Shown piece after piece: positions 4,403 through 48,647 of a stretch of 63,746 nucleotides of DNA (positions are counted from its first letter, which is position 1; every line of letters begins with the position of its first letter). The position numbers and the translations under genes were made by a program. The notes under the pieces were generated by a model. The model ran no database searches, was not told where the DNA came from, and saw nothing but the letters and a program-made list of their open reading frames with translations. Origin of the DNA: Devosia sp. (GTDB lineage Bacteria; Pseudomonadota; Alphaproteobacteria; Rhizobiales; Devosiaceae); assembly GCA_035433065.1 (NCBI GenBank), contig DAORUH010000001.1, positions 1 to 63,746 of the forward strand. Direction: 5' to 3'.

Positions 4403-4479
4403 CTGCTGCATATGCCGGTGACGCAGGACCGTCCTTGAGGTATCCACCGGCGAGACAACACCGCACGGGGGCGAGGGAT

Positions 4480-13609: not shown

Positions 13610-14959
13610 TTAGAGCTTGCTGACCGTATTGGCCTCGCCGACGATGGCGATGACGGCGGTCTTGTACTGCGCCATCGCGGCTTCCGGCGTCAGTTCGCCC
13701 GACACCACCGCTTCGGTCATGCGCTGGATTTCCTGCGACACCGCGTTGTAGTTCGGGTCGTTCGGACGCGCCGTGGTGAGCGGCAGCAGCGTCTGGCTGG
13801 TTTCCGTCAGGAACGGGCTGTTGGGGATCGGCACGTCGGTCCGGGCCGTGATGCGCGGCTGGATCGCCTGGAAGGCCTCAAGCTGCGCCGGCTCGTTCAT
13901 GAACGACAGGAACGCCCAGGCTTCCTTCGGCGTATCCGTCGCCGGGTTGAGCACAAAGCCCGTGCCGCCCGAAATGGTGACGAAATCCTGCCCGCGGATG
14001 CCCTTGCCGGGCTCCTCGGCCGGCACCTTGGCCCAGCCCATGACCTGATCGCGATTGGCCACCGCGAATTCCGAGCCTTCCGGCGTCACCGAGCGATAGA
14101 AATAGTCGCCCTCGAACAGCAGCGCCGTCACCCCGTCGCGGAAGTTCGCGAACGAGCGGTTGCGGCCGTCCGCGAGCAGCTGGATGCGCTGGTCGCCGAG
14201 CTTTTCGTCGACATAGATGGTCTTGTAGAGATTGAGCGTGTCGAGAATGCCCTGGCTCGAAACGATGAACTTGCCGTCGGCATCGGTCACCGCCTCGCCC
14301 GTGCCGAGCAGCGCCAGCCAGTAGCCCTGCATGGTCGTCGCTTCGCCCATCGCCACGCCGGCATTGAGCTGGATCGGGAAGCTGTCCGGCTTCACCTTCT
14401 TGATGGCGCGGGCGGCGTCGAGCACGTCCTTCCACGATTTCGGCTGCCAGGTATCCGGGTCGATCCCGGCTTCCTTCAGCATGTCCTTGCGCGTGTAGAT
14501 CATGCGCACGTCGGTGCCGAGCGGAATGCCGTACTGCTTGCCCTTGTAGATCATCAGGGCGCGCGAACCCTCGGACAGCGCCGCCCAGCCGGTCCAGCTG
14601 TCGACCTCCGGTCCCGCGACCTCATCGAGCGGCTTCAGCAGCCCGCCCTCGACGAAGGAGGGGATCAGGAAGCCGTCGAAGGCCGACACGTCCGGGCCCG
14701 CGCCGGTCGAAAAATCGAGCGCCAGCTGCTGGGTGAGCTGCGCGTCCTCGCCGCCGAACTGGTTCAGCTTCACCTTGATGTCAGGGTGCGCCTTTTCGAA
14801 CGCCGGGATGACGCTGTTGGCGATCCATTCCGCCGTGCCGCTGTTGGTGCCGCCGACTACGCAGCGGCAGGTGACGTCGAGATCAACGGCGAAAGCTGGC
14901 GCGGCAAACGCCGTGGCGCCAAGAAAACCGAGCGCAAGTGCGCGCAGACGATTGCTCAT
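13610..14959 (-). CDS. Carbohydrate ABC transporter substrate-binding protein (family 1)
   Basis: Signal peptide MSNRLRALALGFLGATAFAAPAFA; GPDV, YGIPLGTD. RBS GGAGGT upstream of ATG 14959. Confidence 0.93.
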   Translation of the reverse strand: MSNRLRALALGFLGATAFAAPAFAVDLDVTCRCVVGGTNSGTAEWIANSVIPAFEKAHPDIKVKLNQFGGEDAQLTQQLALDFSTGAGPDVSAFDGFLIPSFVEGGLLKPLDEVAGPEVDSWTGWAALSEGSRALMIYKGKQYGIPLGTDVRMIYTRKDMLKEAGIDPDTWQPKSWKDVLDAARAIKKVKPDSFPIQLNAGVAMGEATTMQGYWLALLGTGEAVTDADGKFIVSSQGILDTLNLYKTIYVDEKLGDQRIQLLADGRNRSFANFRDGVTALLFEGDYFYRSVTPEGSEFAVANRDQVMGWAKVPAEEPGKGIRGQDFVTISGGTGFVLNPATDTPKEAWAFLSFMNEPAQLEAFQAIQPRITARTDVPIPNSPFLTETSQTLLPLTTARPNDPNYNAVSQEIQRMTEAVVSGELTPEAAMAQYKTAVIAIVGEANTVSKL

Positions 14960-15048
14960 CGCAAAAACCTCCCAAATGGTGGCCCCGGATTTGGTGGCCA
15001 GTGTTGGCCTGCCCACCCATCCTCCAGGTGCCGCAGACCGAGAAAGAA

Positions 15049-15062
15049 TGAACACGTTTTCA
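15049..15062. promoter_or_regulatory. LacI-type operator (copy 1) overlapping the ABC operon promoter
   Basis: TGAACACGTTTTCA with central CG. TTGACG (-35-like) lies on the minus strand at 15068-15073. Confidence 0.7.
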
Positions 15063-15212
15063 CTTGTCGTCAATGCAGGCGCGTCCGGCGGTCTCTCCGC
15101 CGTCGCGTCAGCAATGCTGACATTACCCATGTTTTGCGACGATCCTGTAACACCGGCTGACCCCGTGCGCCGGATCATCCGCTTGACAGTCGAGCCGTCA
15201 AAGGCAGAAAAA

Positions 15213-15226
15213 TGAACACGCTTTCA
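15213..15226. promoter_or_regulatory. LacI-type operator (copy 2) upstream of the LacI gene
   Basis: TGAACACGCTTTCA matches copy 1 at 13 of 14 bases. TTGACA at 15183-15188. Confidence 0.7.
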
Positions 15227-15253
15227 CCTTCGGGTGACCAGGGAGACATCGAT

Positions 15254-16294
15254 TTGACCGCGACTGAGTCGCATCCGGCAGGGCGGGCGACCGCCGAAAT
15301 GGTTGCCGCACGGGCCAATGTCTCGCGCGTGGCGGTGTCGCGCGCCTTCAACCCGCACACCTCGCTGAAGCCCGAAAAGCGCGCGCTGATCCTGCGTATC
15401 GCGCAGGAGCTGAACTACACGCCCGATCGCGCCGCCCGCGCGCTGGTGAGCGGCCGCACCCACCTCGTCGGCGTCATCGTCCCCGATGTGTGCAGCAACT
15501 GGGAGAGCCAGGAGATCGACGCGCTGACCACCGCGCTGCAGGATGAGGGCTTTGCCACCCTCTTGTTCAAGACCCGCACCGACTACAGCATGGATGAGCA
15601 ACTGCTCGCCTACATGCGCGGCTTCAACCCGGATTCGGTGATCGCCTTCGTGGAGAACGTGAAACCCGAAACCCTCGCCCGCTTCCTCGATCGCGCCGTG
15701 CCGATCTACGTCGATTACCCGCTGCCCGGCGCTGCCGGCCACCAACCGCCCGGCCCCATGCAGGACCGGCTGAACGTGCTGCAATACACCGGCATCAATC
15801 AGGCCGTGGCGCTGCTGCAGGGCTATGGTGTGAAGCGCATCGCCTATCTCGCCGGCTCCGACAAATCGCGCGCCAATTCCTCGCGCGAACGCACCCTGCG
15901 CCAGGTGATGGCCGAGCGCGGCCTCGGCGAGCCGGTGATCATGCCGGGCGACTACAGCTACGACACCGCCTACCGCTCGACCATCGACCTGTTCCGCGTC
16001 GGGCAGGGGGCCGACGCCGTGTTCGCCGCCAACGACGTCGGCGCCTTCGGCGTCATGGATGCCCTCCGCCACGAGCTGAACCTTTCCATCCCGAAAGACG
16101 TGAAGGTCGTCGGCTTCGACGACATCGCCCAGTCGCACTGGAAGAGCTACAACCTCACCACGGTCAAATTCGATCTCGACGAGCGCGTCCGCGCCCTCGT
16201 CCGGCTGATCCTCCGCCGCCTCAACGATCCGCAGGGCCCGGCGCTCGAAGAAACTCTCAACACCCGCCTCGTTGTCCGCGGCACCGTCGGCTGA
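15254..16294 (+). CDS. LacI-family transcriptional regulator
   Basis: HTH MVAARANVSRVAVSRAFN, YTPDRAARAL, VVGFDDI. TTG start at 15254 after GGAG preferred, because ATG 15212 overlaps the operator. Confidence 0.92.
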   Translation: MTATESHPAGRATAEMVAARANVSRVAVSRAFNPHTSLKPEKRALILRIAQELNYTPDRAARALVSGRTHLVGVIVPDVCSNWESQEIDALTTALQDEGFATLLFKTRTDYSMDEQLLAYMRGFNPDSVIAFVENVKPETLARFLDRAVPIYVDYPLPGAAGHQPPGPMQDRLNVLQYTGINQAVALLQGYGVKRIAYLAGSDKSRANSSRERTLRQVMAERGLGEPVIMPGDYSYDTAYRSTIDLFRVGQGADAVFAANDVGAFGVMDALRHELNLSIPKDVKVVGFDDIAQSHWKSYNLTTVKFDLDERVRALVRLILRRLNDPQGPALEETLNTRLVVRGTVG

Positions 16295-16299
16295 AATCC

Positions 16300-18234
16300 A
16301 TGACCGCCCCCACCATCCACCTCATCTACAAGACCCATCTCGACATCGGCTTCACCGATCACGCGGCCCGCGTGAGACGGCAGTATCACGAGCAGTTTAT
16401 CCCGCAGGCCATCGCCACCGGCGAGCACTTCTTTGCCGAAGACCCGGCGCACCCCGCCTTCATCTGGACGACCGGCGCATGGCTCATCTGGGATCACCTC
16501 AACACGCAGGATGCCGCCCGCGTCGCGCGCCTCGAACGCGCCATCGAGCGCGGCCTCATCGCCTGGCACGCGCTGCCCTTCACCACGCATACCGAGTTGA
16601 TGAATCCCGCACTGTTCCGCGCCGGCCTGTCCTATGCGCAAGAGCTCGACCGGCGCTTCAACCGCGAGACCATCGCGGCGAAAATGACCGATGTGCCCGG
16701 CCACACGCTGGGCATGGTGCCCATCCTCGCCGAGGCTGGCGTGCGGTTCCTCCACCTCGGCGTGAACACCGCGAGCCCGGTGCCCGACGTGCCGCCGATC
16801 TTTCGCTGGCGCGCGCCCGATGGCAGCGAAATCGTCGTCATGTATCAGGCCTCCTACGGCGACACCGATTTCCCCGCCGGGCCGGATATCGGGCTGAGTT
16901 TTGCCCACACCAGCGACAATATCGGCCCGCAAAGCGTGCCGCAGACGGCCGAGGCCCTGCGCCGCATCCACCACGAGAACCCCGGCGCCACCATCACCGC
17001 CTCGACCCTCGATGCCTTCGGCGCCGCCATGTGGGAGCGCCGCGAGGCCTTCCCCATCGTCGAGCACGAGATCGGCGACAGCTGGATTCACGGCACGGCG
17101 AGCGATCCGCACAAGCTCGCCCGCTTCCGCATGATGCAGCGCCTCCACGACGCATGGGAGCTGGAGCTGACGCCGCGCCGCCTCGCCTTCGGCAGGCAAC
17201 TGGCGCTGGTCGCGGAGCACACCTGGGGCGTCGACATCAAGAGCTACCTGCGCGACGAGACGGCCTTCGACCGCGAGCCCTTCGAGCGTCTCCGCGCGAC
17301 CGACCATCGCTTCGCCTACACCGAACAATCCTGGGCTGAGCAGCGCGCCTATATCGACGAGGCGCTCGGCGCGCTGCACGGCGGGGACCGCGCGCTGGCG
17401 GCGGGGGCACTGCGAGCGCTCGACGTGCCTCCCGCCGCCGCCCCAACTCCCGGCACGCAGCTCAGCGACGGCGGGTGGACGGCAGAACTCTCGCCCGAGA
17501 CCAGCGACATCGTCAGCATCACCGCCCCCTCCGGCCGCATCATCGCGGGCGAGGCTGGAAGCCTGTTCGGCTATCGCCACGAAAGCTACGATTGGGCGGG
17601 CCTGCAAACCCACCTCAATACCTACCTGCAGCACCGTGAAGAATGGGCCATCCTCGATCACGACAAGCCCGGCCTCGCCAACGCTCGCACCGCGCAACAG
17701 GCGGCCTTCGTCCCCACCCATGCCGGCATTGCTGACCGCCGAACAGCTGTCGCAACCATGTCCGAGACGGCCGTCTCACAACTGGGCGCGCCGCTCCGCG
17801 TCGATATCGCCATCAAGGCCGTCCACAACGAGCGGCTCGAACTGACGCTGGTCCTGCGCGGCAAGGCCGCCAATCGTATGCCCGAGGCCGGCTTCCTGAG
17901 CTTCACCCCGGCGACCGCCGGGAACTGGAGCCTCGAAAAGATGGGCCTCTGGCACAGATCCGATGCCATCGTGCGCCGCGGCGGCGGGCAGTTGCAGGCC
18001 GTCACCGCCGTGCGCACGGGCGAGGGCGACACGAGCCTCACGCTCGAACTGCTCGACGCGGCGCTGGTGGCTCCGGCTACGTCGCCCTTCATGCCGTTCC
18101 AGCCCGAGGTGCCGGATTTCTCGCGCGGTGTCCGGGTCAACCTCTACAACAACAAATGGGGCACCAATTTCCCCATGTGGTGGGAGGGCGACGTGCTGTT
18201 CCGCTTCATCCTGGAGCTCCGCGCCTCCGGCTAG
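16300..18234 (+). CDS. DUF5054-type putative glycoside hydrolase (GH38-like N-terminal domain)
   Basis: KTHLDIGFTD (HxD), MTDVPGHT, EIGDSWIHG, EHTWGVD, NLYNNKWGTNFPMW. Confidence 0.78.
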   Translation: MTAPTIHLIYKTHLDIGFTDHAARVRRQYHEQFIPQAIATGEHFFAEDPAHPAFIWTTGAWLIWDHLNTQDAARVARLERAIERGLIAWHALPFTTHTELMNPALFRAGLSYAQELDRRFNRETIAAKMTDVPGHTLGMVPILAEAGVRFLHLGVNTASPVPDVPPIFRWRAPDGSEIVVMYQASYGDTDFPAGPDIGLSFAHTSDNIGPQSVPQTAEALRRIHHENPGATITASTLDAFGAAMWERREAFPIVEHEIGDSWIHGTASDPHKLARFRMMQRLHDAWELELTPRRLAFGRQLALVAEHTWGVDIKSYLRDETAFDREPFERLRATDHRFAYTEQSWAEQRAYIDEALGALHGGDRALAAGALRALDVPPAAAPTPGTQLSDGGWTAELSPETSDIVSITAPSGRIIAGEAGSLFGYRHESYDWAGLQTHLNTYLQHREEWAILDHDKPGLANARTAQQAAFVPTHAGIADRRTAVATMSETAVSQLGAPLRVDIAIKAVHNERLELTLVLRGKAANRMPEAGFLSFTPATAGNWSLEKMGLWHRSDAIVRRGGGQLQAVTAVRTGEGDTSLTLELLDAALVAPATSPFMPFQPEVPDFSRGVRVNLYNNKWGTNFPMWWEGDVLFRFILELRASG

Positions 18235-18281: not shown

Positions 18282-18296
18282 ATAGCTCAAACTTAT
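18282..18296 (+). promoter_or_regulatory. LysR-type T-N11-A box upstream of the aroE-ABC operon
   Basis: ATAGCTCAAACTTAT is the exact reverse complement of 28234-28248. Confidence 0.75.
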
Positions 18297-18425
18297 GGCT
18301 GGCCCGCCAGATTGAAATGGTTGCACCGCTGGTGCTCTGCCAGCCTCCATGGGTTGGCTGGGGGGCCAGGGGAGGATGTCTGGCGTGTGTGCCGTGCACT
18401 GTGGTGCGCCCGGAAAGGGCGCTGA

Positions 18426-19274
18426 ATGAGCCGCCGGAACAAGGCATTCGTGATGGGCCACCCCATCGCGCATTCGCGCTCGCCGCTGATGCACGGCCAC
18501 TGGCTCAAGACCCTGGGCATCACCGGCTCCTATGAGCGGCTCGATGTCGCTCCCGCCGATATCGACACCTTCTTTGCCGGCTTTCGTGATGCCGGTTGGG
18601 TCGGCGGCAATGTCACTGTCCCGCACAAGTCCGCCGTTATCCCGCATCTCGCCGGCCTCGACGCCGCCGCGGAAGCGATGGGCGCGGTCAACACCATTTA
18701 CTGGGATGGCGACGACCTTGTCGGCGGCAATGCCGATGGCATCGGCTTCACCCACAATCTCGATGACCGCGCGCCGGGCTGGGATGCCGGGGCGCGCCGC
18801 GCCGTGGTGATCGGGGCAGGCGGGGCGGCGCGTGCCGCCACTTATGCGCTGCTCGAGCGTGGGCTCGATGTGGCGCTGTGCAACCGCACCGTCGCTCGGG
18901 CCGAACAACTGGCGGCCCGTTTCGGCAAACGCGTCACCGCCCACGGCACCGACGCCTTGCCGAGTCTCATGGCCGATGCCGACCTTCTGGCGCAGACGAC
19001 AAGCCAGGGGATGATCGGCCAGCCGCCGCTCACGCTGGACCTCGCGCCGCTGAAGCCCGGGGCGGTGGTCTGCGACATTGTCTATGTGCCGCTCGACACG
19101 GATCTCCTGAAAGCTGCCCGCCAGCGCGGACACCGCACGGTCGATGGCCTCGGCATGCTGATGCATCAGGCGGTCGTCGGCTTTACCCACTGGTTCGGCC
19201 AGACTCCGGTGGTGACCGATGAGCTCAGGAAGATCCTGACCGACGACATCAAGGCGAAGACGCCGGGGGCATGA
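18426..19274 (+). CDS. aroE: Shikimate dehydrogenase (AroE type, NADP fingerprint)
   Basis: GHPIAHSRSP, NVTVPHK, GAVNT, GAGGAARA, NRT, DIVYVP, DGLGMLMHQA. Confidence 0.9.
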   Translation: MSRRNKAFVMGHPIAHSRSPLMHGHWLKTLGITGSYERLDVAPADIDTFFAGFRDAGWVGGNVTVPHKSAVIPHLAGLDAAAEAMGAVNTIYWDGDDLVGGNADGIGFTHNLDDRAPGWDAGARRAVVIGAGGAARAATYALLERGLDVALCNRTVARAEQLAARFGKRVTAHGTDALPSLMADADLLAQTTSQGMIGQPPLTLDLAPLKPGAVVCDIVYVPLDTDLLKAARQRGHRTVDGLGMLMHQAVVGFTHWFGQTPVVTDELRKILTDDIKAKTPGA

Positions 19275-19376
19275 AGACCTGCCGCGCCGCACGCATAGCC
19301 TGACGCACGACCCGGCCGCACCCCGTGCGCAACCGGAAATCAACGCCCCAACGCGGGTGACATGGGAGGAGACCTG

Positions 19377-20522
19377 ATGATGAGAAGAACAGTGGCAACG
19401 CTGGCCATCGCTTCGGTGGCCGCACTGATGAGCCTGCCGTCGGCCCTGCTGGCGCAGGAAACGGTGAAAATCCCGTGCCTGTGCGAAGCCTCTGGCGCCG
19501 CCGCGGTGTCGGGCACCAATCTGAGCGACGGTGCGCATCTCGCCATCGAGGAGATCAACGCCGCGGGTGGCATCCTCGGCAAGCAGATCGAAATGGTGAA
19601 CTACGACACCCAGTCCGATCCGCAGGTGTCGCGCGCCCTCATGCAGAAGGCCATCGACGACGGCGCCTATGCGGTCGTCGGCACGGTGTTCTCGGGCTCC
19701 ACTATCGTCAACATGCTGGTGTCGCAGCAGGCCGGCGTGCCGCAGTTCACCGGCTCCGAGGCCCCCAATATCACCGCGCAGGGCAACCCCTACATCTTCC
19801 GCACCGCTTCGAGCGCCGCCAAGGGCGTGCCCAGCCTCACCCCGTACTTCAAGGACACGCTGAAGGCGGACAAGGTGGCCGTCGCCTGGGTCAACAACGA
19901 GTTCGGCAAGGGCGGCCACGATGTCTTCGTGGGCGAGATGGAAAAGGCTGGCATCGAGATCGTCGCTGACGTGTCGAGCGAGCAGGGCCAGGCCGATTTC
20001 GCCGCCGACATTTCCAAGATCAAGGAATCCGGCGCCAAGGCCGTGTTCGTCTATCTCAACGAGGAAGAGTCGGCGCGCCTTCTGCGTGAGGCAAAGAAGC
20101 AGGGCCTGTCTATCCCGCTGGTTGGCGAAGTGACGCTCACCGGCCAGAAGGTGATCGAGCTCGCGGGCGATGCCGCCAATGGCGCCTACGCCCATGTGGG
20201 CCTCACCACCGGCGCCGATGTGCCCTCGATCCGCGAATTCGCCGACAAGTTCAATGCCAGGTACAACCGCACGACCGACCACAACGGCATCAAGGGCTAC
20301 ATCGCGGTCTACGCGATCAAGTACCTGACCGAGCTCGTCGGCGGCTTCGACCGCGAAGCGCTCGCCAAGAAGGCGCACGGTCTCACGCTCGACGTCGCGA
20401 CCTATCCGGGTATGCTCCTGACCACGTCATGGGACGACAAGGGTGAGCTTTCGCGCGAAAGCTTCATGACCCAGGTCGTTGACGGCAAGCAGGTCGTGAT
20501 CGGCACCGTTCCGGCCAACTGA
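19377..20522 (+). CDS. HAAT (LivJ-like) ABC transporter substrate-binding protein
   Basis: Signal peptide; AIEEINAAGGILG, NPYIFRT, NNEFGKGG. RBS GGAGG. Confidence 0.92.
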   Translation: MMRRTVATLAIASVAALMSLPSALLAQETVKIPCLCEASGAAAVSGTNLSDGAHLAIEEINAAGGILGKQIEMVNYDTQSDPQVSRALMQKAIDDGAYAVVGTVFSGSTIVNMLVSQQAGVPQFTGSEAPNITAQGNPYIFRTASSAAKGVPSLTPYFKDTLKADKVAVAWVNNEFGKGGHDVFVGEMEKAGIEIVADVSSEQGQADFAADISKIKESGAKAVFVYLNEEESARLLREAKKQGLSIPLVGEVTLTGQKVIELAGDAANGAYAHVGLTTGADVPSIREFADKFNARYNRTTDHNGIKGYIAVYAIKYLTELVGGFDREALAKKAHGLTLDVATYPGMLLTTSWDDKGELSRESFMTQVVDGKQVVIGTVPAN

Positions 20523-20576
20523 TACCGGGTGGCGCCCTCGCCCGGGGGCGCCACTCCACCAACCCCGGAGACGGCC

Positions 20577-21455
20577 TTGTCGCAGTTCCTGCAGGTGCTT
20601 CTATCCGGGCTTGCCACCGGCTCCATCTACGCCCTCGCCGCCATCGGCTTCACGCTGCTCTGGCAGGCGGCGCAGACGGTGAACTTCGCCCAGGGCGAGT
20701 TCGTCATGCTGCCGGCCTTCTTCGTCCTCTTCGCCATCAAGGTGTTGTCCTTCCCCCTCTGGCTGGCGCTGCTGTTCGGGCTGCTGCTGGCCGTCCTGCT
20801 GCTTGGCCTGCTGTTCAAGAAAATCATCGCCGAGCCGATGCAGGGCAATCTCGGCCTGCCGCTGGTCATCGCCACGATGGCCCTCGCCATCCTGATGAAG
20901 GAGAGCACCAAGATGTTCTTCGGGGCCGAGGCGCAGCCCTTCCCCGAACTGTTCCCTGCCGACACCATGAACGTGCTGGGCGCGATCGTCTCGGTGCAGG
21001 ACCTGCTCAACCTCGCGACCTCGCTGCTCTGCGTCGTGGCGCTCTCGATGTTCCTCAACCGCACCCGCACCGGCCGCTGCATGCAGGCCACGGCGCAGAA
21101 CCCCGCTGTCGCCGAAATCCTCGGCGTCAACATCAAGCGCATGGTGCTCTACACCTTCCTCATCAACGCCGCCCTTGCCGCGCTCGCCTCCTTCCTCATC
21201 TCGCCGCTCTATCTGGCAAAGTTCTCCAACGGCGAGACGTTGGGCATCGTGGCCTTCATCGCGGCCATCATCGGCGGCTTCAACCAGATCCGCGGCGCGC
21301 TGGTGGGCGGCCTGCTGATCGGCGTGCTCGACAACCTCGTCGCCACCTACGTCACCGCCGAGTACCGCGCCGCCGTGCCGCTGGTCCTGCTCATCGCCAT
21401 CATCCTGTGGCGGCCGCAGGGCCTGCTCGGCACGTCCGAAGGAAGAAAAGTCTGA
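20577..21455 (+). CDS. HAAT ABC transporter permease (LivH-like)
   Basis: GSIYALAAIG, NFAQGEF, RPQGLLG. TTG start after GGAG. Confidence 0.92.
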   Translation: MSQFLQVLLSGLATGSIYALAAIGFTLLWQAAQTVNFAQGEFVMLPAFFVLFAIKVLSFPLWLALLFGLLLAVLLLGLLFKKIIAEPMQGNLGLPLVIATMALAILMKESTKMFFGAEAQPFPELFPADTMNVLGAIVSVQDLLNLATSLLCVVALSMFLNRTRTGRCMQATAQNPAVAEILGVNIKRMVLYTFLINAALAALASFLISPLYLAKFSNGETLGIVAFIAAIIGGFNQIRGALVGGLLIGVLDNLVATYVTAEYRAAVPLVLLIAIILWRPQGLLGTSEGRKV

Positions 21456-22432
21456 TGCGCGCCTGGATCAAGCCGCTCGCCCTCATCATCGGGCTTGCGC
21501 TGCTCGCGGTCGCGCCGATCGGGCAGGGCAATTACGTCATCCACATCCTCTGCTCGTGGCTGATCTTCACCATCGCCGCGATGGGCCTCAACCTCACCCT
21601 CGGCTATGCCGGGCAGATTTCGCTGGCGCAGGCCTCGTTCATGGCCATCGGCGCCTACGCGACCGCGCTTATCACCCTCGCCGGCCTGCCGTGGATTCTC
21701 GGCCTCGCCAGCTCGATCGTCCTCTGCCTCGCCGTCGGCCTCGCGCTCGGCTTCCCGGCGCTGCGCGTGCAGGGGCACTTCCTCGCCTTCGTGACGCTGG
21801 CGTTCAACACGCTGGTCTTCCTCGTCGCCCGCAACGAGGACTGGCTCACCGGCGGCTCCTACGGCCTCGTCGGCATGCCCCGGCCCAATTTCTTCGGCTT
21901 CGATACCGGCCGGCAGCTGCACTTTTACTACTTCGTGCTCATCGTCTTCATCCTCTCGGCGCTGGTGATGTGGGGCATTGTCCGCTCGCCCTGGGGCCGC
22001 GCCTTCAAGGCCCTGCGCGAAAACCCGATCCGCGCCGAAAGCCTCGGGCTGGATACCCGCACGCTCACGCTCCTCGCCTTCGCCATCGGCTCGGCCTATG
22101 GCGGCATCGCCGGCGCGCTGATGACGCCACTGGTGCAGTTCATCGAACCGGGCACCTTCGCGCTCGGCCACTCGCTGCGCATCCTCTTGATGGTCGTCGT
22201 CGGCGGCGCGGGCTTCTTCTTCGGCCCGCTGCTCGGCGCCGCGGTGGTGATCCTCCTGCCCGAATTCATGCGCTTCACCGAAGGCTACTACCTCATCATC
22301 TACGCCGCCGCCGTCATCGTCCTGATGGTCCTCTGCCCGTCCGGCCTCATCGGGCTGGGCCGCCGCATCGCCGCCCGCTTCCGCCCGCGCACCGAAGCCC
22401 GCGCCGATCTCAAGGAAGGGGCGCAGCTGTGA
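21455..22432 (+). CDS. HAAT ABC transporter permease (LivM-like)
   Basis: GYAGQISLAQ, LTGGSYG, SPWGRAFKALRENP. TGATG coupling with the upstream gene. Confidence 0.92.
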   Translation: MRAWIKPLALIIGLALLAVAPIGQGNYVIHILCSWLIFTIAAMGLNLTLGYAGQISLAQASFMAIGAYATALITLAGLPWILGLASSIVLCLAVGLALGFPALRVQGHFLAFVTLAFNTLVFLVARNEDWLTGGSYGLVGMPRPNFFGFDTGRQLHFYYFVLIVFILSALVMWGIVRSPWGRAFKALRENPIRAESLGLDTRTLTLLAFAIGSAYGGIAGALMTPLVQFIEPGTFALGHSLRILLMVVVGGAGFFFGPLLGAAVVILLPEFMRFTEGYYLIIYAAAVIVLMVLCPSGLIGLGRRIAARFRPRTEARADLKEGAQL

Positions 22433-23190
22433 GCCCCCCGGATGCCGTTCTCGCCGTCACCGATATCGTAAAGCACTTCGGCGCCATCCGCGCCGTCGAT
22501 GGGGTGAGCTTCGATGTCCGCCGTGGGGAAATCCTCGGCCTCATCGGACCCAACGGCTCGGGCAAATCCACCCTCTTCAACTGCATCCTCGGCCAGCTGA
22601 CGCCCACCGGCGGCCGCGTCGAGGTGAAGGGCCAGCCGGTCTCCGGCAAGCGCGCCAACCAGCTGAGCCGGCTCGGCGTCGGCCGCACCTTCCAGCAGCT
22701 TTCCGTCTTCCCGCAGATGACCGTCCTCGACAACATCATCCTCGCCGGCCAGGAGCATCGCGGCACGCTGATCGGCCGGCTGTTCGGCAAGCCCGACGCC
22801 GGCCTCACCGCCGCAGCCGACCAGATGATCGCCTTCTTCCGCTTGACCCACCTGCGCGACCAGATGGCGGGCTCGCTCTCCTACGGCCAGCAGAAGCTCG
22901 TCGATGCCGCGATGGCCTTCATGGCCGGCCCCGATCTGGTGCTGCTCGACGAGCCGGCGGGCGGGGTGAATCTCACCATGCTCGGCGCCCTGCGCGAGCG
23001 GCTGATCGCCTACAACCGCGAGCACGGCACGACCTTCGTCGTCATCGAGCACAACATGGAATTCGTGATGTCGCTGTGCACGCGCATCATCGTGCTCGCC
23101 GAGGGCAAAATCATCGCCGAGGGCACGCCCGGCGAGATCCGCAACAACCAGCTGGTGATCGACGCCTATCTCGGAGGCGGCCATGCTTGA
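22429..23190 (+). CDS. HAAT ABC transporter ATP-binding protein (LivG-like)
   Basis: GPNGSGKST, LSYGQQK, LLDEPAGG, IEHNM. GTG start overlaps the previous stop codon. Confidence 0.92.
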   Translation: MSPPDAVLAVTDIVKHFGAIRAVDGVSFDVRRGEILGLIGPNGSGKSTLFNCILGQLTPTGGRVEVKGQPVSGKRANQLSRLGVGRTFQQLSVFPQMTVLDNIILAGQEHRGTLIGRLFGKPDAGLTAAADQMIAFFRLTHLRDQMAGSLSYGQQKLVDAAMAFMAGPDLVLLDEPAGGVNLTMLGALRERLIAYNREHGTTFVVIEHNMEFVMSLCTRIIVLAEGKIIAEGTPGEIRNNQLVIDAYLGGGHA

Positions 23191-23908
23191 GATCCGCGAT
23201 CTGTTCGGCGGCTACGGCAAGATCACCATCCTCAACGGCGTGAGCTGCACCATCCCGCGCGGCTCGATCACCACCGTCATCGGCCCGAACGGCGCCGGCA
23301 AGTCCACCGTGTTCAAGGCCATCTTCGGCCTCCTCGCCATCCAGTCCGGAAAAATCCTGCTCGAAGGCGAGGACGTGACCGGCCTGCCACCCGCGAAGAT
23401 GATCGCGCGCGGCGTCACCTATGTGCCGCAGGGCCGCAACGTCATCCCGCAGCTTTCGGTCTGGCACAATCTCGAACTGGGCGGCGTCACCGCGCATGAT
23501 CAGAAGCAGGTGCGCCGCCGCATCGATCAGGTGATGGAGCAGTTCCCCATGCTGCGCGAGCGCCAGCACCAGAAGGCCATCGAGCTCTCCGGCGGCCAGC
23601 AGAAGCAGCTCGAAGTCGCCCGCGCCCTGCTGCTCGATCCAAAACTCATCCTCGTCGACGAGCCCTCCATCGGCCTCTCGCCCAACCTCGTGCAGGAGGT
23701 GTTCGCGACGCTGCAGCGCCTGCGCGACAATGGCGTCACCGTGCTGATGATCGAGCAGAACGCCAAGGCGGCGCTGAAGATTTCCGACTACGGCCTCGTC
23801 CTCGAACTCGGCCAGACCCGCATGCACGACCGGGCGGACACGTTGCTCAACGATCCGCGCGTCGGCCGCCTGTTCCTCGGCGGCTCGGTCGAGCCCGCCG
23901 CCACCTGA
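23183..23908 (+). CDS. HAAT ABC transporter ATP-binding protein (LivF-like)
   Basis: GPNGAGKST, LSGGQQKQ, DEPSIGLSP, IEQNA. Confidence 0.93.
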   Translation: MLEIRDLFGGYGKITILNGVSCTIPRGSITTVIGPNGAGKSTVFKAIFGLLAIQSGKILLEGEDVTGLPPAKMIARGVTYVPQGRNVIPQLSVWHNLELGGVTAHDQKQVRRRIDQVMEQFPMLRERQHQKAIELSGGQQKQLEVARALLLDPKLILVDEPSIGLSPNLVQEVFATLQRLRDNGVTVLMIEQNAKAALKISDYGLVLELGQTRMHDRADTLLNDPRVGRLFLGGSVEPAAT

Positions 23909-24747
23909 TGGCCCCCATCCGCCTCGGCATCGTCGGCGACAATGTCGCCCACTCGCAGTCCCCTTCCTTCCACACGCTGGCCGGCCGCCACGCCGGTATC
24001 GACGTGCGGTTCGATCTGATCGAACCCGCCCGCTGGGGCCTCGATTTCGAGGCGGTGATCGCCCGCTGCCGGCGCGAAAACTATGCCGGGCTCAACATCA
24101 CCTATCCCTACAAGGAACGCGTGCTGGCGCTCCTCACCGACGCCGATTCCGACGTTGCGCGGATGGGCTCGTGCAACACCGTGCTGTTTCGCGGCTGGCG
24201 GCTCAGCGGCCACAACACCGACCACACCGGCTTCATGGCCGCCTTCCGCCACGGCTTCGGCCGCCCGCCCGGCACCGCGCTCGTCGTCGGCGCCGGCGGC
24301 GTCGGCCGCGCCGTGGTGCTCGGGCTCGGCAAGCTCGGCGCCAGCCGCATCCTCCTCGCCGACACCGACCGGCTCCGCGCCAAAGCCGTCGCCGCCGATC
24401 TCGCGCCGCACCTCAAATGTCCCATTGAAGTCGTGAGCAACGCCGACGAGGCCGCGCGCCACGCCGATGGCATCGTCAACTGCACGCCGCTTGGCTCAGT
24501 GGGGCACGAAGGCTCGCCCGTGCGAGACGAGAGTCTTACCGGCAAAGCCTGGGCCTTCGATGTCGTCTATGCGTCCGGCGGCACCGCCTTCGGCCAGCAG
24601 GCGGCGCGTGCCGGTGTGCCATTCGCCGGCGGCTATGAGCTGCTGTTCCATCAGGGGCTCGATGTGTTCGAGCTGTTCACCGGCCACACGGTTGCCGATC
24701 CCAAAAAGCTCCGCGCCGAACTGCAGGCGATGGGCGCCACGGCCTAG
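23908..24747 (+). CDS. Shikimate/quinate dehydrogenase family protein (probably NAD-dependent)
   Basis: SQSP, GLNITYPYK, CNTV, GHNTDHTGF, GAGGVGRA. Acidic ADTD replaces NRT. Confidence 0.86.
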   Translation: MAPIRLGIVGDNVAHSQSPSFHTLAGRHAGIDVRFDLIEPARWGLDFEAVIARCRRENYAGLNITYPYKERVLALLTDADSDVARMGSCNTVLFRGWRLSGHNTDHTGFMAAFRHGFGRPPGTALVVGAGGVGRAVVLGLGKLGASRILLADTDRLRAKAVAADLAPHLKCPIEVVSNADEAARHADGIVNCTPLGSVGHEGSPVRDESLTGKAWAFDVVYASGGTAFGQQAARAGVPFAGGYELLFHQGLDVFELFTGHTVADPKKLRAELQAMGATA

Positions 24748-25799
24748 GGAAACACGGTTCCCTCGAACAGCTTCCGCGCCGTCCGCAGCGTCCCCGCCCC
24801 AACAATCTCGCCCGCCGCATCGCGCTCGATCAGCACTTCCGTCGCCCCACTCGGGTGCTCGATGGCAAAGCGCCTGCCGTCCTCCGGTAGCTTCGCGAGC
24901 CCCGCCGCGGGCGAGTCCTCGAACAGGCACGCGGTTGCCACCGTCACCGCGGCCAGAACGCCGATCGAGGCATGGCACCGGTGGGGAATAAAGCTGCGGG
25001 TCGAGATCGCGCCGCCACCAAGTGCCGCCGAAACCAGCGTCATTTTTGGCACCGACTTTTCGGTCACATCGCCAAGGTTCATCAGCGGCCCGGCCTTCAG
25101 CCGGATGCTCTCAAGCCGCGCCTTCAGCGCCGCATTGGCATCGAGCGCCTCGCGCGTCTCGGTGCCGGTCACGCCAACGTCAGTGGCGCGCAGGATCACG
25201 CAGGGCATGCCGTTGTCGATCAGCGTCACGGTGATCCCGTCGATCACGTCGCGCGCCCGGCCCGTCGGCAGCAGCGCGCCGCACATCGATCCGGCAATGT
25301 TCTGGAACAGCAGCGGCACCGGCGCATGCGTCCCCGGCACGCCGTCGATTGACGCCGCGCCCTCATAGGTCACCACGCCGCCCGGCGTCGAAACCTCAGC
25401 CTCAGCCACCTCGCCGGTGTTGAGCATATGGATGCGCACCGGCGTCGTGCCGTCCCGCGCCGCAACCAGCCCCTGCTCGATGGCGAACGGCCCGACGCCC
25501 GCCAGCATGTTGCCGCAGGCCTGCGCGTCGCTCACCAGCGGCTGGTCCACGAACACCTGCAGGAACAGGTAATCCACATCGGCATCCGGCCGCGACGGCG
25601 GGCCGACAATCGCCACCTTCGATGTCAGCGGGTCGGCCCCGCCCATCCCGTCTATCTGCCGCACATCGGGCGAACCCATCACCCGCAGCAACATGCGGTC
25701 ACGCTCCGCCACATCGGCGGGCAGGGCGCCCGCCAGAAAGAACGCGCCCTTCGACGTTCCCCCGCGCATCCATGTGCAGGGGATGCCGCCGCTAGACAT
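24744..25799 (-). CDS. galD: 4-oxalomesaconate tautomerase (PrpF/FldA family)
   Basis: [54 protein letters not shown]. Lies next to galB/galC. Confidence 0.9.
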
Positions 25800-26463
25800 A
25801 CTTCAGGCCCTTTTTGGCCAGGTCCTCGCGCATGCCATACATGTCGAGGCCAAGCTCCCCGGCCGCCAGCCGCGCGCGCTTGCCGGCCTCGGCCGCGAGC
25901 CGCTTGTTGGCGGCGGCAAGCACCGCTGCGGCGTCTTCGCGCCGCACCACGCACACGCCATCATCGTCGGCCACGATCACGTCGCCCGCCTTGATCGCCG
26001 CCCCGGCGCAGACGATCGGCACGTTCACCGAGCCCAGCGTTTCCTTCACCGTGCCCTGCGCCGAAACCGCCTTCGACCACACCGGAAAACCCATCGCCGT
26101 CAGGTCGCGCACGTCACGCACACCTGCGTCGATGACCAGCCCGCGGCACCCGCGCGCCATCGCCGAAGTGGCGAGCAGGTCGCCAAAATAGCCGTTGTCA
26201 CAGGGTGAGGTCGGCGCAACGACGAGGATGTCGCCGTCACGCAATTGCTCGATGGCGACATGCAGCATCCAGTTGTCGCCGGGCGGCACCGAAATGGTCA
26301 CCGCCGAACCGGCAATCTGCGCCCCGGCATAGATCGGGCGCATATGGCTCGCCAGCATGCCGATGCGCCCCTGCGCCTCGTGCACCGTGGCAACGCCGGC
26401 ATGCGCGAGCCCGGCTATGGTCGCGCTGTCGGCGCGCTCGATGTTCTGAACCACGACGCCCAT
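25792..26463 (-). CDS. galC: 4-carboxy-4-hydroxy-2-oxoadipate aldolase / oxaloacetate decarboxylase (GalC/LigK)
   Basis: [53 protein letters not shown]. Confidence 0.92.
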
Positions 26464-27417
26464 TCAACTTTCCTTCTTCTTCGGCGGCGTGCCGTGGGTG
26501 TGGAAGGTTTCGATGGTCTTCAGCCCCCAGGCCTGCCCCTTCTTGCGTTCGGCCTCGGTCCATACGACCGGCTCCCAGTCCGGCGCAAGCACCAGCCGCG
26601 CGCCCGAATTGGCCAGTTCCACGCGGTTGCCGGCGGGCTCCCAGACATAGAGGAAGAATGTTCCCTGGATGGCGTGCTTGTGCGGGCCCTGCTCGATATG
26701 CACGCCATTCTCGAGGAAGATATCGGCGGCGCGGATGATGTCTTCGCGGCTGTCGGTCGCGTAGGTGACGTGGTGCAGCCGCCCGCGCATCCCGCCATGT
26801 TCCTCGGTGCAGGCGAGGTCATAGCCCTTGTTGTTGATGGTGAACCAGCAACCGCCGAGCCGCCCGTTGTCGAGCTGGATCATCTCGGTCACGCGCGAGC
26901 CGAGGCAGGTTTCCATGAACTCACGGAACTCGCTCACGTCGTCGGCGAGGAGGTTGAGGTGGTCGAGCCGCCGCGGCGCTGCCCCGTGGTAGCGCTGGGC
27001 GAGGTTCTTGAGGGCAGGGCGCTCGCCTTGCGGCGGCACATAGCGGTGCGTGTCCCAGTAGATTTCGAACACGTGCCCGAACGGGTCTTCGAAGCGGAAC
27101 GCCCGCCCGTGCCCGAGGTCGCCTTCCACCCAGCCCAGTGTCTTGAAGCGGCTTGCCTCGATGGCAAGCACGCGCCGCATCAGCGCCTCTTCGGAACTCG
27201 CGCGATAGGCCACGTGCCCGATGCCGGTCGTATAATGCCGCGTCAGCTTCAGCGTATGGAACTCATAGTCGTCCCAGGCGCGCAGATACGCCGAGGTCTC
27301 GTCCTCGCCCGACAGCGTCAGCCCATAGACGAGGGTGAAGAAGTCGAGGCTCTCGTCGTACCTGTCGGTGTACATCTCGACATGGGCAAGGTGCGCGATG
27401 TCGAAGCAAAGGGGCAT
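26464..27417 (-). CDS. Type I (VOC-fold) extradiol dioxygenase, catechol 2,3-dioxygenase family
   Basis: YLRAWDDYEFHTL, RLDHLN, LHHVTY, HKHAIQGTFFLYVWEPAGNRVE (Fe(II) His/His/Glu ligands and catalytic Tyr). Confidence 0.88.
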   Translation of the reverse strand: MPLCFDIAHLAHVEMYTDRYDESLDFFTLVYGLTLSGEDETSAYLRAWDDYEFHTLKLTRHYTTGIGHVAYRASSEEALMRRVLAIEASRFKTLGWVEGDLGHGRAFRFEDPFGHVFEIYWDTHRYVPPQGERPALKNLAQRYHGAAPRRLDHLNLLADDVSEFREFMETCLGSRVTEMIQLDNGRLGGCWFTINNKGYDLACTEEHGGMRGRLHHVTYATDSREDIIRAADIFLENGVHIEQGPHKHAIQGTFFLYVWEPAGNRVELANSGARLVLAPDWEPVVWTEAERKKGQAWGLKTIETFHTHGTPPKKKES

Positions 27418-28151
27418 CAGAGTTCGTCCACTGTCCGCGGGAAGACCGACTGGAACCCTTCAGCATATTTCGCGGCGCGTCCACCCGATTGCCCGCCGGA
27501 ATTGCGCTGGAAGTGGTTGGCGCGGTTCTGCGCCAGCCGCGTGTAATACTCCCACAGGTGCTCCTGGCCCTCCATGCATTCGATGGCGGCGCGCTTCTTG
27601 TCCCACACGCCGGTGATGTCGAGGAAGGTGTCGGGCTTCCAGCCCATCTGCTCGGTCTGGTGCGGCTCGAACAGATAGAGCTGCGGCGCGCCCAGCACCT
27701 TTTCGCCCGGCTTGTGCCCCCAGGCCTGCGCGATGCTGCGCGTTTCGAGCGCCACCTCGGTCGCATACATGTGGTCGGTATTGTACGGGTCGTAGTGCGA
27801 GTGGCTGAGCATGAAGGCCGGCTGCACGGCGCGGATCACATCCACCAGCCGGAACTTGTCCGCATCGCTCATGCGTAATGGGTAATCGCCGAGGTCGAAG
27901 CTGATGAGGTCGTGCACGTCGAGCGCCTTGGCGGCCCGTTCGGCCTCGTCGCGGCGCGCCGACTTCACCTTGTCGATGGTCATGCCGGGGAGCTTCCAGA
28001 GTTTGGCGGATTCGCCCCGCTCGCCGAACGACAGGCAGACCACCGTCACCTTGTAGCCAAGCGCCGCATGGTGGGCGATCGCCCCGCCGCAGCGCCAGAC
28101 GAAATCGGCCGCATGCGCGCTGATGACGAGAGCGGTTTTGCTGTCCGGCAT
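27417..28151 (-). CDS. galB: 4-oxalomesaconate hydratase (PIG-L fold)
   Basis: SAHAADFVWRCGG, SFGERGESAKLW, DPYNTDH, FEPHQTEQ, QEHLWEYY. Confidence 0.88.
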   Translation of the reverse strand: MPDSKTALVISAHAADFVWRCGGAIAHHAALGYKVTVVCLSFGERGESAKLWKLPGMTIDKVKSARRDEAERAAKALDVHDLISFDLGDYPLRMSDADKFRLVDVIRAVQPAFMLSHSHYDPYNTDHMYATEVALETRSIAQAWGHKPGEKVLGAPQLYLFEPHQTEQMGWKPDTFLDITGVWDKKRAAIECMEGQEHLWEYYTRLAQNRANHFQRNSGGQSGGRAAKYAEGFQSVFPRTVDEL

Positions 28152-28233
28152 GGTTCCTCGCAAACGCACGGATTGACCCCGCGATCTCGCCGTATCGGAC
28201 GGGACTTGCCAATTCGAAAGGCGGGCCCTGGCG

Positions 28234-28248
28234 ATAAGTTTGAGCTAT
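28234..28248 (-). promoter_or_regulatory. LysR-type T-N11-A box in the galB/LysR divergent region
   Basis: Minus strand reads ATAGCTCAAACTTAT, identical to 18282-18296. Confidence 0.75.
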
Positions 28249-28272
28249 ACCGGCTGGTCTGGAGCACACGGA

Positions 28273-29508
28273 ATGGCAATAGTTGCAACGAGGCCGGAAA
28301 CCCGGCGCCGCCGGAAAAATGGGGGAGTTCTGGTCCTGATCGCCACGCTGCGCCATCTGCGCGTCTTTTCGGCCGTCGCCCAGACCGGCTCGGTCACCCG
28401 CGCCGCCGAGATTTGCCATGTCTCGCAGCCGGCGGTGACGCAGGCCATCGGCAAGCTCGAACGCGAGGCCGGTGGGCCGCTGTTCCAGCGCACGCCGCAG
28501 GGCCTCTTCCTCACTGCCACCGGCACGGCGCTGGCGGCCCGTGTCGATCGCGCCTTCGGCATGCTCGATCCGGTGCTCACCGAACTCGCGCCGCGCCTCC
28601 GCCTCACGGCCACGGCCGCACAACTTCACGCCCTCGTCGCCATGTGCGAAACCGAAAACTTCACCCTCGCCGCCCGCCGCATGGGCCTCGCCCAGCCGAC
28701 GGTGCATCGCGCCGTCACCCAGCTTGAGCAGGAAGCGGCGCGCCCCCTGTTCGAGCGCACCTCCTACGGCATGATCGCGACCCGGCCCGCGCTGGCGCTC
28801 GCGCAGGCGGCGCAACTGGCCTTTGCCGAACTGGAGCAGGGCGAGGCCGATCTTGCCGAATTCGCCGGCCGCGAGGTTGGCCGCATCGTCATCGGCGCAC
28901 TGCCGCTGTCGCGCTCCTATCTCCTCGCGCGCACCATCGCCCGCTTCCGCAAGCGCCGCCCCACGCTGCCCGTCCGTGTCCTCGATGGTCCCTACAACGA
29001 TCTGATGCAGGGCCTCCGCCGCGGCGAGGTCGATCTCATCATCGGCGCGCTGCGCGACCCCGCCCCCATCGGCGATATCGAGCAGCAGCCGCTGTTCGAC
29101 GATGGCCTCGTCGTCGTCGCCCGCCGCGACCACCCGCTGATCGGCGGCCCGCCGCCCACCCTCGCCGATCTCGCGCGCTACCCGTGGGTGGTCCCCATCG
29201 AACTTGCCCCCACCCGACGCTATTTCGACCGCCTCTTCGCCCCGCTCGGCGACGCCGCGCCGAAAAGCCTCGTCGAGACCGGCTCCATCGTCCTGATGCG
29301 TGAACTGCTGCGCGTGTCCGACCATGTCGGCTGCATCTCGCGGCTGCAGATCGCCGCCGAGATCGACCATGGCCACATCGCCGAAGTCCCCTTCGCGCTC
29401 GAAGGCTCGTCGCGCCCCATCGGCCTCACCATCCGCTCCGGCTGGGTGCCGACCCGCGCGCAGGCCGAGTTCCTCGATGACCTGAGGGCCGTCGCTACGT
29501 CGCCATGA
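28273..29508 (+). CDS. galR: LysR-family regulator with two tandem HTH domains (GalR-like)
   Basis: Two LysR HTHs (GSVTRAAEICHVSQPAVTQAI and ENFTLAARRMGLAQPTVHRAV). Divergent from galB. Start uncertain: ATG 28273, or CTG 28336 after GGGGGAG. Confidence 0.85.
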   Translation: MAIVATRPETRRRRKNGGVLVLIATLRHLRVFSAVAQTGSVTRAAEICHVSQPAVTQAIGKLEREAGGPLFQRTPQGLFLTATGTALAARVDRAFGMLDPVLTELAPRLRLTATAAQLHALVAMCETENFTLAARRMGLAQPTVHRAVTQLEQEAARPLFERTSYGMIATRPALALAQAAQLAFAELEQGEADLAEFAGREVGRIVIGALPLSRSYLLARTIARFRKRRPTLPVRVLDGPYNDLMQGLRRGEVDLIIGALRDPAPIGDIEQQPLFDDGLVVVARRDHPLIGGPPPTLADLARYPWVVPIELAPTRRYFDRLFAPLGDAAPKSLVETGSIVLMRELLRVSDHVGCISRLQIAAEIDHGHIAEVPFALEGSSRPIGLTIRSGWVPTRAQAEFLDDLRAVATSP

Positions 29509-47902: not shown

Positions 47903-48592
47903 CTAGCGCTTTGCCCGGCTGCGGTCGCCGACCGGGCGGACGGGTGGGGCGGGCGGGAGCAGGTCGCGGATGTCGGCGAACGGGTAGACCGGCTCGAAGC
48001 GATAGGCTTCGGCGGCGCTGCCCGGCGCGGCATTGGTTTGTGCGGCACGGAAGGCCGCGAGCTGCCCGGCCATGGTGATGAAGCGCTCGGGGTCCTGCGA
48101 GGCGTGCTCGCGGATCGCGGCGGCCTTCAGCACGGTGTGGGCTGTGGTGTCGATGTAGTGCGTGGGCTGAAAGCCGACGCCCATGATCGTGTCGGCCCAC
48201 AGCACCGGGGCGTGGAAGCTCGACGCGATGCGCACCGCGTCGCTGAGCGCGCGATGGTCGGCGTGATAGTCGTTGGGCGCGTGCGTGACGATGAGGTCGG
48301 GCTGCGTATTGGCGATGAGGGTCTTGAGCGCCGCGATCAGCTTTGCATCGGCGGTGAGTTCGCCATCGGGGAAGCCGAGGAAGTGCGGGGTGACTTCGAG
48401 GTGGGCGGCGGCCGCGGTGGCCTCGGCCTTGCGTTTGCGGGCGAGGGTGGCGGGGCTGGCTTTGCCGCCCCTGCTGCCGTCGGTGGCGATGGCAAAGCTC
48501 AGGGTTGCGCCGTTTTGCTTGAAGGCAGCGAGGGCGCCGAACATGTAGATCTCGATGTCGTCGGGATGGGCGCCGATGGCGAGGATGTTCAT
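47903..48592 (-). CDS. PIG-L/LmbE family N-deacetylase
   Basis: AIGAHPDDIE, TDGSRG, DYHADH, HASQ. Confidence 0.88.
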   Translation of the reverse strand: MNILAIGAHPDDIEIYMFGALAAFKQNGATLSFAIATDGSRGGKASPATLARKRKAEATAAAAHLEVTPHFLGFPDGELTADAKLIAALKTLIANTQPDLIVTHAPNDYHADHRALSDAVRIASSFHAPVLWADTIMGVGFQPTHYIDTTAHTVLKAAAIREHASQDPERFITMAGQLAAFRAAQTNAAPGSAAEAYRFEPVYPFADIRDLLPPAPPVRPVGDRSRAKR

Positions 48593-48647
48593 GTGTGGTC
48601 CACTGTTGCGGCGGGCTGGGCGTGGCTCGGGCATCGTGCCTGAAACT

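Follow-up and report, generated by a model that had tools for sequence, protein, structure and literature searches.

Two convergent operons and a shared GalR-type operator

We analyzed a 63,746-nt stretch of a Devosia sp. genome (assembly GCA_035433065.1, contig DAORUH010000001.1, positions 1 to 63,746; hereafter the window), in which genes for shikimate dehydrogenases and an ATP-binding cassette (ABC) importer face genes of gallate catabolism in two convergent operons, with a divergent regulator gene beside them. The genome is a 3.0-Mb assembly that is 81% complete, a figure that bears on every genome-wide absence given below. The forward-strand operon opens with aroE1 (18426..19274, +), which encodes an extra NADP-type AroE shikimate dehydrogenase that passes the AroE equivalog NF001312 (361.6 against a cutoff of 295) and falls in a clade of its own. 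It continues with the substrate-binding protein (SBP) of a HAAT-family ABC system (19362..20522, +; likely start at 19377) and, on the strength of profile matches, LivH-type (20529..21455, +; start uncertain) and LivM-type (21455..22432, +) permeases and LivG-type (22429..23190, +) and LivF-type (23183..23908, +) ATPases. The last gene is aroE2 (23908..24747, +), for a QsuD-like quinate/shikimate dehydrogenase predicted to be NAD dependent, whose best PDB match is the quinate/shikimate dehydrogenase of C. glutamicum (3JYO).

The facing operon consists of galB (27417..28151, -; 4-oxalomesaconate hydratase of the PIG-L family, in an open reading frame [ORF] extendable to 28169), a gene for a VOC-fold type I extradiol dioxygenase that likely cleaves gallate (26464..27417, -), galC/ligK (25792..26463, -; 4-carboxy-4-hydroxy-2-oxoadipate aldolase), and galD (24744..25799, -; 4-oxalomesaconate tautomerase). 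A CTAG at 24744-24747 holds the stop codons of both aroE2 and galD. Divergent from galB lies a gene for a GalR/FldY-like LysR regulator (28273..29508, +), whose start is uncertain (28240 TTG, 28273 ATG, or 28330 CTG) and whose product contains two HTH_1 (helix-turn-helix) stretches. A sequence-only reading of the window had described these gene positions, the two-HTH LysR, the overlapping stop codons, and an identical 15-bp box before each operon, and all of them are present. An assembly artifact was rejected as the source of this arrangement: contigs from other sequencing runs, all labeled activated sludge metagenome, match without differences across box-aroE1-SBP, the aroE2/galD junction, and VOC-galB-box-LysR.

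The box, ATAGCTCAAACTTAT, is a GalR-type operator of the form ATAGC-N4-ACTTAT with a T-N11-A core, found at 18282..18296 (+) ahead of aroE1 and at 28234..28248 (-), 83 nt upstream of galB, with both copies sitting within a 22-nt inverted pair of 91% identity. About 15 nt beyond the first copy stands GAAATGG, which resembles the GAATTGG seen at galB promoters, and the second copy is followed by GAATTGGCA. The box occurs twice in the genome, with no further copy at up to 2 mismatches, and 15 nt or more were held in common by 1 of 1,500 random pairs of equal-sized regions. In 28 related loci, variants of ATAGC-N4-ACTTAT precede galB or the VOC gene by some 80 to 100 nt; these sites were picked for training by likeness to the window box, so that only their position is independent evidence. 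In most of these training sites GAATTG or AAATTG follows about 15 to 17 nt after the box, and a similar element is found at both window promoters. An operator model places the two window sites first and second genome-wide, with scores of 22.7 and 17.8; scanning for sigma-70 motifs turned up no promoter.

The LysR shares 42% identity with an FldY-annotated protein and 32 to 34% with the LysR divergent from galB in Pantoea, and it is through these two proteins, not the P. putida GalR sequence, that we liken it to the GalR type. The gal cluster of P. putida KT2440 comprises GalA, GalB, GalC, GalD, GalT, GalP, and GalR (PMC9942251, PMC9649394), and its GalR acts at two promoters with 4-oxalomesaconate as effector (PMC9942251). 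The window resembles that cluster in its GalB, GalC, and GalD orthologues, in a LysR divergent from galB, and in one regulator acting on two promoters through a T-N11-A box. It differs in having a VOC dioxygenase in place of a LigB-type GalA, a HAAT ABC system in place of a major facilitator superfamily (MFS) transporter and porin, and, in the second operon, a pair of shikimate dehydrogenases.

Because the conserved operator and the second promoter element recur at both promoters, co-regulation of the two operons is likely, as had been read from the sequence, and the GalR-like LysR very probably drives both promoters. We consider the regulon real, with two facing operons tied by one conserved GalR-type operator. 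The pca-qui genes of Acinetobacter offer a precedent for an aromatic lower-pathway regulator that also controls the hydroaromatic upper pathway. Directly upstream of the regulon, positions 13610-18234 hold sugar ABC genes, a LacI regulator, and a DUF5054 protein, a stretch that is common to no relative locus and is probably unrelated to the regulon.

The gal operon and its VOC-fold dioxygenase

The lower-pathway enzymes are readily recognized: GalD passes NF033377 (526 against a cutoff of 440), GalC passes TIGR02798 (378 against 304.5), and GalB matches the 4-oxalomesaconate hydratase 5CGZ (E 1.5e-93). The dioxygenase matches PF00903 and scores 282.7 on the catechol 2,3-dioxygenase family TIGR03211, short of its cutoff of 320.2, and its fold matches that of 3LM4 (Z 29.2; root mean square deviation of 3.1 over 302 residues). 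With the type I extradiol dioxygenases (AphC 7Q2A, 3LM4, LapB 3HPV, HPCD, and 9WGJ) it shares the VOC fold, the His-His-Glu metal triad (H153/H216/E267, kept in 120/120 homologues), His246, and Tyr257. It departs from AphC, 3LM4, and LapB at position 199, where a tyrosine, present in all 120 homologues, aligns with their histidine, and its gene has oxalomesaconate genes rather than a catechol meta-pathway as neighbors. We take the replaced histidine (XylE H199 / HPCD H200) to be the active-site acid/base. Among solved structures the nearest relative is 9WGJ (353.7 bits, 323 amino acids), which has this tyrosine too and is labeled "Catechol 1,2-dioxygenase."

The VOC family is large (6,122 proteins at E 1e-30 or better, more distant clades included), and we counted neighbors in 80 VOC loci, the best of 415 in GTDB. 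These 80 loci contain galC in 67 cases, galD in 64, and galB in 59, with galC accompanied by a GalB or LigJ hydratase in 64; LigB and tannase each appear once, a LigI-like gene appears in 10, and true LigC appears in none (two weak matches). At least 43 of the 67 gal-bearing loci also carry a transporter. A DUF1932 NAD(P)-dependent oxidoreductase is encoded in 45 of the 80, usually between the LysR gene and galB (e.g., L016:3327-4235), and the window cluster has none, a 35% homologue being found elsewhere in the genome (C51:5536-6342). DUF1932 as a substitute for LigC was considered and rejected, since it also occurs beside real LigC (L147, L229).

The positions that the VOC gene occupies in other organisms point in the same direction as the counts. 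In Pantoea the regulator is followed by an aromatic-acid MFS gene and then the VOC gene, where galT-galA stand in P. putida, and on a walnut Agrobacterium plasmid (L227:14246-19617, CP048549.1) galB-VOC-ligK-galD is directly followed by a tannase gene and several esterase genes. VOC genes are carried on both walnut and grapevine Agrobacterium plasmids. The window cluster contains no GalA/LigB-superfamily dioxygenase, and in the genome PF02900 and queries for LigB, LigI, Amidohydro_2, tannase, and PobA gave no match; a LigC query returned only weak Gfo/Idh/MocA matches (27 to 35%). The Pfam tannase profile was uninformative, as it gave no match in any control genome.

AromaDeg places gallate dioxygenases in the LigB superfamily (PMC4250580). 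Because gallate yields oxalomesaconate directly, with no need for LigC or LigI, it is the likeliest substrate of the VOC enzyme, and we think it probable that this dioxygenase cleaves gallate and replaces GalA. The proposal that a VOC enzyme opens the ring and feeds GalD, GalB, and GalC is thus upheld as likely by the neighbor genes, the Pantoea position, and the tannase of the walnut plasmid. Protocatechuate 4,5-cleavage in Sphingobium (lig/fld) likewise has LigK/GalC, FldA/GalD, and an FldY-like LysR, and differs in its LigAB, LigC, LigI, and LigJ, which the window cluster lacks. The operon galB-VOC-galC-galD with its two-HTH LysR is common, the VOC replacement is widespread, and the lower pathway is known. 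Our literature search turned up no publication about this clade as VOC gallate dioxygenases or about 9WGJ; it covered mostly openly readable papers and is thus weak evidence of absence.

Two further features of the window touch on these enzyme families. An intradiol dioxygenase gene (Dioxygenase_N plus _C; hydroxyquinol/catechol 1,2-dioxygenase-like) lies at the contig start (22-864), and a second PIG-L deacetylase gene lies at 47903-51957 with two genes similar to each other, of which the one scanned encodes an MGH1-like glycoside hydrolase.

An AroE clade linked to gallate genes, and its importer

The housekeeping aroE is on contig C64, in maf-aroE-coaE-dnaQ, and is 50% identical to aroE1, so the housekeeping role was rejected for aroE1. 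In a quick IQ-TREE analysis of shikimate dehydrogenases (SDHs), the aroE1 clade, with at least 119 relatives at 62 to 73%, is distinct from housekeeping AroE (98% support in the approximate likelihood ratio test SH-aLRT). The substrate residues and the NRT NADP motif are conserved across it. N89 is kept in 120/120 sequences, T90 in 115, and T103 in 111, with alanine at position 103 in the window protein. The clade is rare: it is present in 2 of 401 genomes of the order (the window genome included), in 3 of 173 genomes of one genus, and in 0 of 400 other genomes sampled across the class, and a plasmid search returned three matches at 45 to 52%.

The two-AroE layout of the window was not seen in any of the 80 VOC loci, 2 of which carry the aroE1 clade and none an aroE2 orthologue. 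The suggestion that two aroE paralogs travel together with galBCD and a VOC gene therefore fails for the pair, but a link between the aroE1 clade and gal or VOC genes does recur. On the tree, the clade is linked to gal genes or a GalR box in five lineages, the first being the window itself. The second (G248) has DUF1932-galB-galC-aroE1-SBP-ABC in one run with a divergent VOC gene and a different SBP subclade, and the third (L031) has aroE1 and the VOC gene as a divergent pair without an importer. The fourth (L092; the sister locus L094 has a weak box) shows the end of a GalR-like LysR gene, an amidohydrolase gene, a box scoring 23.3, aroE1, and the SBP gene. In the fifth, G525 and G646 carry, in sequence, VOC-galC-galD and genes for an amidohydrolase, a LysR, and a RifI-like SDH, then qsuB, aroE1, and the ABC genes.

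A VOC gene is present somewhere in 7/7 whole genomes carrying the aroE1 clade. Within one genus, all 3 aroE1 carriers are among the 29 of 131 genomes that are VOC positive (p = 0.010, or 0.049 with two close kin merged, kin in this sample not being independent). Given this co-occurrence and the recurring lineages, the aroE1 clade acts like an accessory to the gal-VOC pathway, while the converse does not hold. The conserved operator and an AroE clade tied to the gallate pathway are the new parts of this system; the same literature search, with its limited weight on absence, yielded no paper on bacterial shikimate catabolism through gallate or on a tie between an AroE clade and gallate.

Other aroE1 loci (L033:12779-18483, L097, L098, L129, L194, L198, and L200) share a recurrent cassette with genes for a lactonase-family amidohydrolase, a LysR, an SDH, and often QsuB, followed by aroE1 and the ABC genes. 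L033 belongs to Rhizobium acaciae 1AS11, which has the gal-VOC and the aroE1-ABC modules together. The cassette amidohydrolase is nearest to 2FFI and LigI, and the cassette SDH is closest to 4K28, which we take to be RifI-like. A lactone or epimer of quinate or shikimate is possibly the substrate of this cassette.

The importer and aroE2 have family histories of their own. Across 94 loci of the SBP family (56 metagenomic and 38 genomic), which usually adjoins shikimate dehydrogenases and QsuB, a qsuB gene lies nearby in 33 and gal genes lie nearby in 2. On this count, a hydroaromatic ligand for the importer, as proposed from the sequence, is likely, if by a modest degree. A single-sequence structural model of the SBP was unusable (predicted local distance difference test score [pLDDT] of 37.7), and ligand inference from structure was dropped. 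AroE2 has intact substrate motifs, carries Asp in place of NRT, falls below the cutoffs of NF009201 (204 against 235) and NF010631 (129 against 515), and has no relative above 52% identity. Neighborhoods of its family, taken from 20 of 29 loci collected via the relative P0244, contain QsuB in 10/20, a TRAP SBP in 13/20, and AroQ in 9/20, and gal or VOC genes in 0/20. These neighbors of the SBP and aroE2 families suggest that the importer and AroE2 stem from quinate/shikimate catabolism, although in the window they sit without QsuB, unlike the usual operons of their families.

Individual relatives of the importer have varied surroundings. The ABC family of the window also stands beside a LigC-like gene, DUF1932, a GalR-like LysR gene, and galBCD, with a box (L147:312-10094), and an SBP relative of 79% identity adjoins a gene for a tannase-like hydrolase (L091:3192-11155), near what appear on reading the letters to be a cytochrome P450-reductase fusion and an hmgA-like gene. 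One locus (L090) was left out of the counts, as its livG is fused to uvrA-like sequence (3469-4482), its contig is probably chimeric, and its aroE label is spurious.

Possible routes from shikimate and quinate

From the gene identities, the shared operator, and the neighborhood statistics, we infer the following activities, which make up a reading that we favor tentatively and would not call probable. The ABC system would import shikimate or quinate, which the NAD-type AroE2 would oxidize, and conversion of 3-dehydroshikimate to gallate would fall to the NADP-type AroE1. Ring opening by the VOC dioxygenase would then yield 4-oxalomesaconate, to be converted to pyruvate and oxaloacetate by GalD, GalB, and GalC, whose names derive from family matches, all under one GalR-type regulon. 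Use of quinate would also require the AroQ of contig C32. By analogy with the effector of P. putida GalR, 4-oxalomesaconate (PMC9942251), the upper operon would be induced by product. The gallate route would supplement the classical route from QsuB to protocatechuate rather than replace it. We lean to this reading because of the minimal aroE1-VOC pair (L031) and the operon galB-galC-aroE1 (G248).

The step on which it turns is the oxidation of 3-dehydroshikimate. The sequence-only reading had treated gallate formation by AroE-type enzymes as established, and the literature supports a weaker statement: the reaction proceeds slowly, and part or most of it occurs without enzyme (PMC4892741, PMC6797610). 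In one report, a 20-h incubation of E. coli AroE with 4 mM shikimate at pH 9 yielded 94 µM gallate (PMC3057006). The described gallate-forming SDHs (AroE of E. coli and the walnut SDH, PMC3057006; grapevine VvSDH3/4, PMC4892741) share with AroE1 the NADP-type AroE fold and the catalytic Lys/Asp, but there the activity serves biosynthesis or is a side reaction at pH 9, and the aroE1 clade is missing the plant group III/IV substitutions. The literature searched held no catabolic bacterial case of a gallate-forming SDH. That AroE1 makes gallate at a useful rate is a possibility that we rate below even.

A number of observations weigh against this route. The AroE1 active site is canonical (S17, S19, T64, K68, N89, D104, Y220, Q248, and the NRT motif), and the specific plant group III/IV substitutions (N406S, T407C/N, T422V; PMC4892741) are absent from its clade, a plant signature that may not transfer to bacteria. 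In the grapevine work, 3-dehydroshikimate gives gallate and protocatechuate without enzyme, only VvSDH3 and VvSDH4 exceed the control, and the gallate obtained with the classical grapevine SDH did not rise above the level without enzyme (PMC4892741); in tea, gallate formation is described as mainly non-enzymatic (PMC6797610). Most genomes with the VOC pathway do without the clade, which is absent from 48 of 50 VOC-gal genomes (those 50 coming from the best 80 VOC loci) and from 26 of the 29 VOC-positive genomes of one genus; moreover, 2 of the 7 genomes behind the full co-occurrence (G483 and G492) were found via the VOC gene, which biases that figure. No gal gene lies near aroE1 in L097, L098, L129, L194, or L200 (L089, L096, L110, L111, and L132 are too short to judge), seven aroE1 cassettes (L033, L089, L097, L098, L132, L198, and L200) hold their own QsuB, and the VOC gene of G248 is split into two ORFs. 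At the operator, the aroE1 site (17.8) scores below the training range (at least 20.1) and close to the next two, unrelated genome sites (16.8 and 16.2), and a box scoring at least 12 is present in just 3 of 16 aroE1 upstream regions (the window, L092, and weakly L094).

The genome itself also offers another exit. Contig C32 holds a complete classical operon (C32:6563-13608, L222; TetR, SDH, TRAP, AroQ, and a QsuB/QuiC-like dehydratase), whose SDH exceeds the NF009201 cutoff and whose QuiC-like protein reaches 700 bits, below the cutoff of 1,200, and contig C54 holds pcaQ-pcaD-pcaC-pcaH-pcaG-pcaB (C54:338-5078, L223). Together these clusters mean that shikimate and quinate can already go via protocatechuate, and QsuB is also found in 4 of the 5 other aroE1 genomes tested. 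The earlier observation that the cluster has no dehydroshikimate dehydratase, LigAB/GalA, LigC, or LigI is confirmed, but it does not force a gallate route, since the genome holds the classical one elsewhere. Compared with classical quinate/shikimate catabolism of the C. glutamicum QsuBCD type, the window operon is alike in its QsuD-like aroE2 and in an importer family usually found with QsuB, and differs in lacking a dehydratase and in having a GalR-type operator where the C32 operon has TetR.

These facts also feed the explanation that ranks close behind, which we hold to be possible yet doubtful: a co-catabolism regulon with gallate as the inducer of both operons, in which AroE1 and AroE2 work as ordinary shikimate/quinate dehydrogenases, dehydroshikimate leaves via QsuB and the pca enzymes, and the gal operon only deals with gallate from a separate source or formed as a by-product, whether from tannins, from galloyl-quinate/shikimate esters, or spontaneously from accumulated dehydroshikimate. 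The canonical AroE1 site, the classical QsuB and pca genes, the QsuB inside many aroE1 cassettes, and the spontaneous formation of gallate and protocatechuate reported in the grapevine work (PMC4892741) all suit it, as do the tannases beside the walnut-plasmid VOC operon and beside the 79% SBP relative. It leaves unexplained the importer-free pair of L031 and the aroE1 inside the galB-galC operon of G248, and the genome gave no tannase match. A less probable variant, which we would call unlikely, has the ABC system re-purposed to import gallate, with AroE1 acting on the gallate side, for example by reducing a keto tautomer of gallate to dehydroshikimate or shikimate, which would serve aromatic amino-acid salvage, or by using some other hydroaromatic analogue. 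Gallate has the 3,4,5-trihydroxy-carboxylate pattern of shikimate, the ABC system is the only transporter in the window regulon in a family of loci where transporters are frequent, its relatives stand beside LigC-galR-galBCD in L147, and induction by a gallate product would fit; yet the SBP family travels mostly with shikimate dehydrogenases and QsuB, and gallate alone would give little reason to recruit a QsuD-like AroE2.

The VOC enzyme might instead cleave protocatechuate (4,5) or 3-O-methylgallate, with shikimate passing via QsuB to protocatechuate, 2-pyrone-4,6-dicarboxylate, and oxalomesaconate with the help of DUF1932 and LigI-like lactonases. The LigI-like and DUF1932 genes of the VOC loci and the lactonase-family amidohydrolase that accompanies most aroE1 cassettes speak for such a path, but the absence of true LigC from all 80 loci, of LigI, LigC, and Amidohydro_2 matches from the genome, the presence of pcaHG to handle protocatechuate, and the occurrence of DUF1932 beside real LigC make it quite improbable. 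That two unrelated operons are neighbors by chance we regard as very improbable: close relatives of aroE2 are lacking and the window alone shows two AroE genes laid out in this way, but an identical operator and a second promoter element stand at both promoters, and the aroE1-gal link recurs in other lineages.

Returning to the favored route through gallate, its strongest form is a conjecture that we consider doubtful. The aroE1 clade would be a dedicated 3-dehydroshikimate dehydrogenase yielding gallate and NADPH which, together with the tyrosine-bearing VOC enzyme, would form a second, undescribed shikimate/quinate route that skips protocatechuate, ends in pyruvate and oxaloacetate, and was assembled under GalR several times in Alphaproteobacteria. 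The conserved operator is a ready tool for mapping these regulons, and dioxygenases of this clade now labeled catechol 2,3-dioxygenase or VOC protein are probably gallate dioxygenases, with a fold unlike that of GalA/DesB and an unusual active-site tyrosine. If AroE1 does form gallate efficiently, it would settle the contested enzymatic formation of gallate by shikimate dehydrogenases with a bacterial enzyme under selection, would offer microbial gallate production a step that yields NADPH without needing oxygen, and would give hydroaromatic catabolism a second route.

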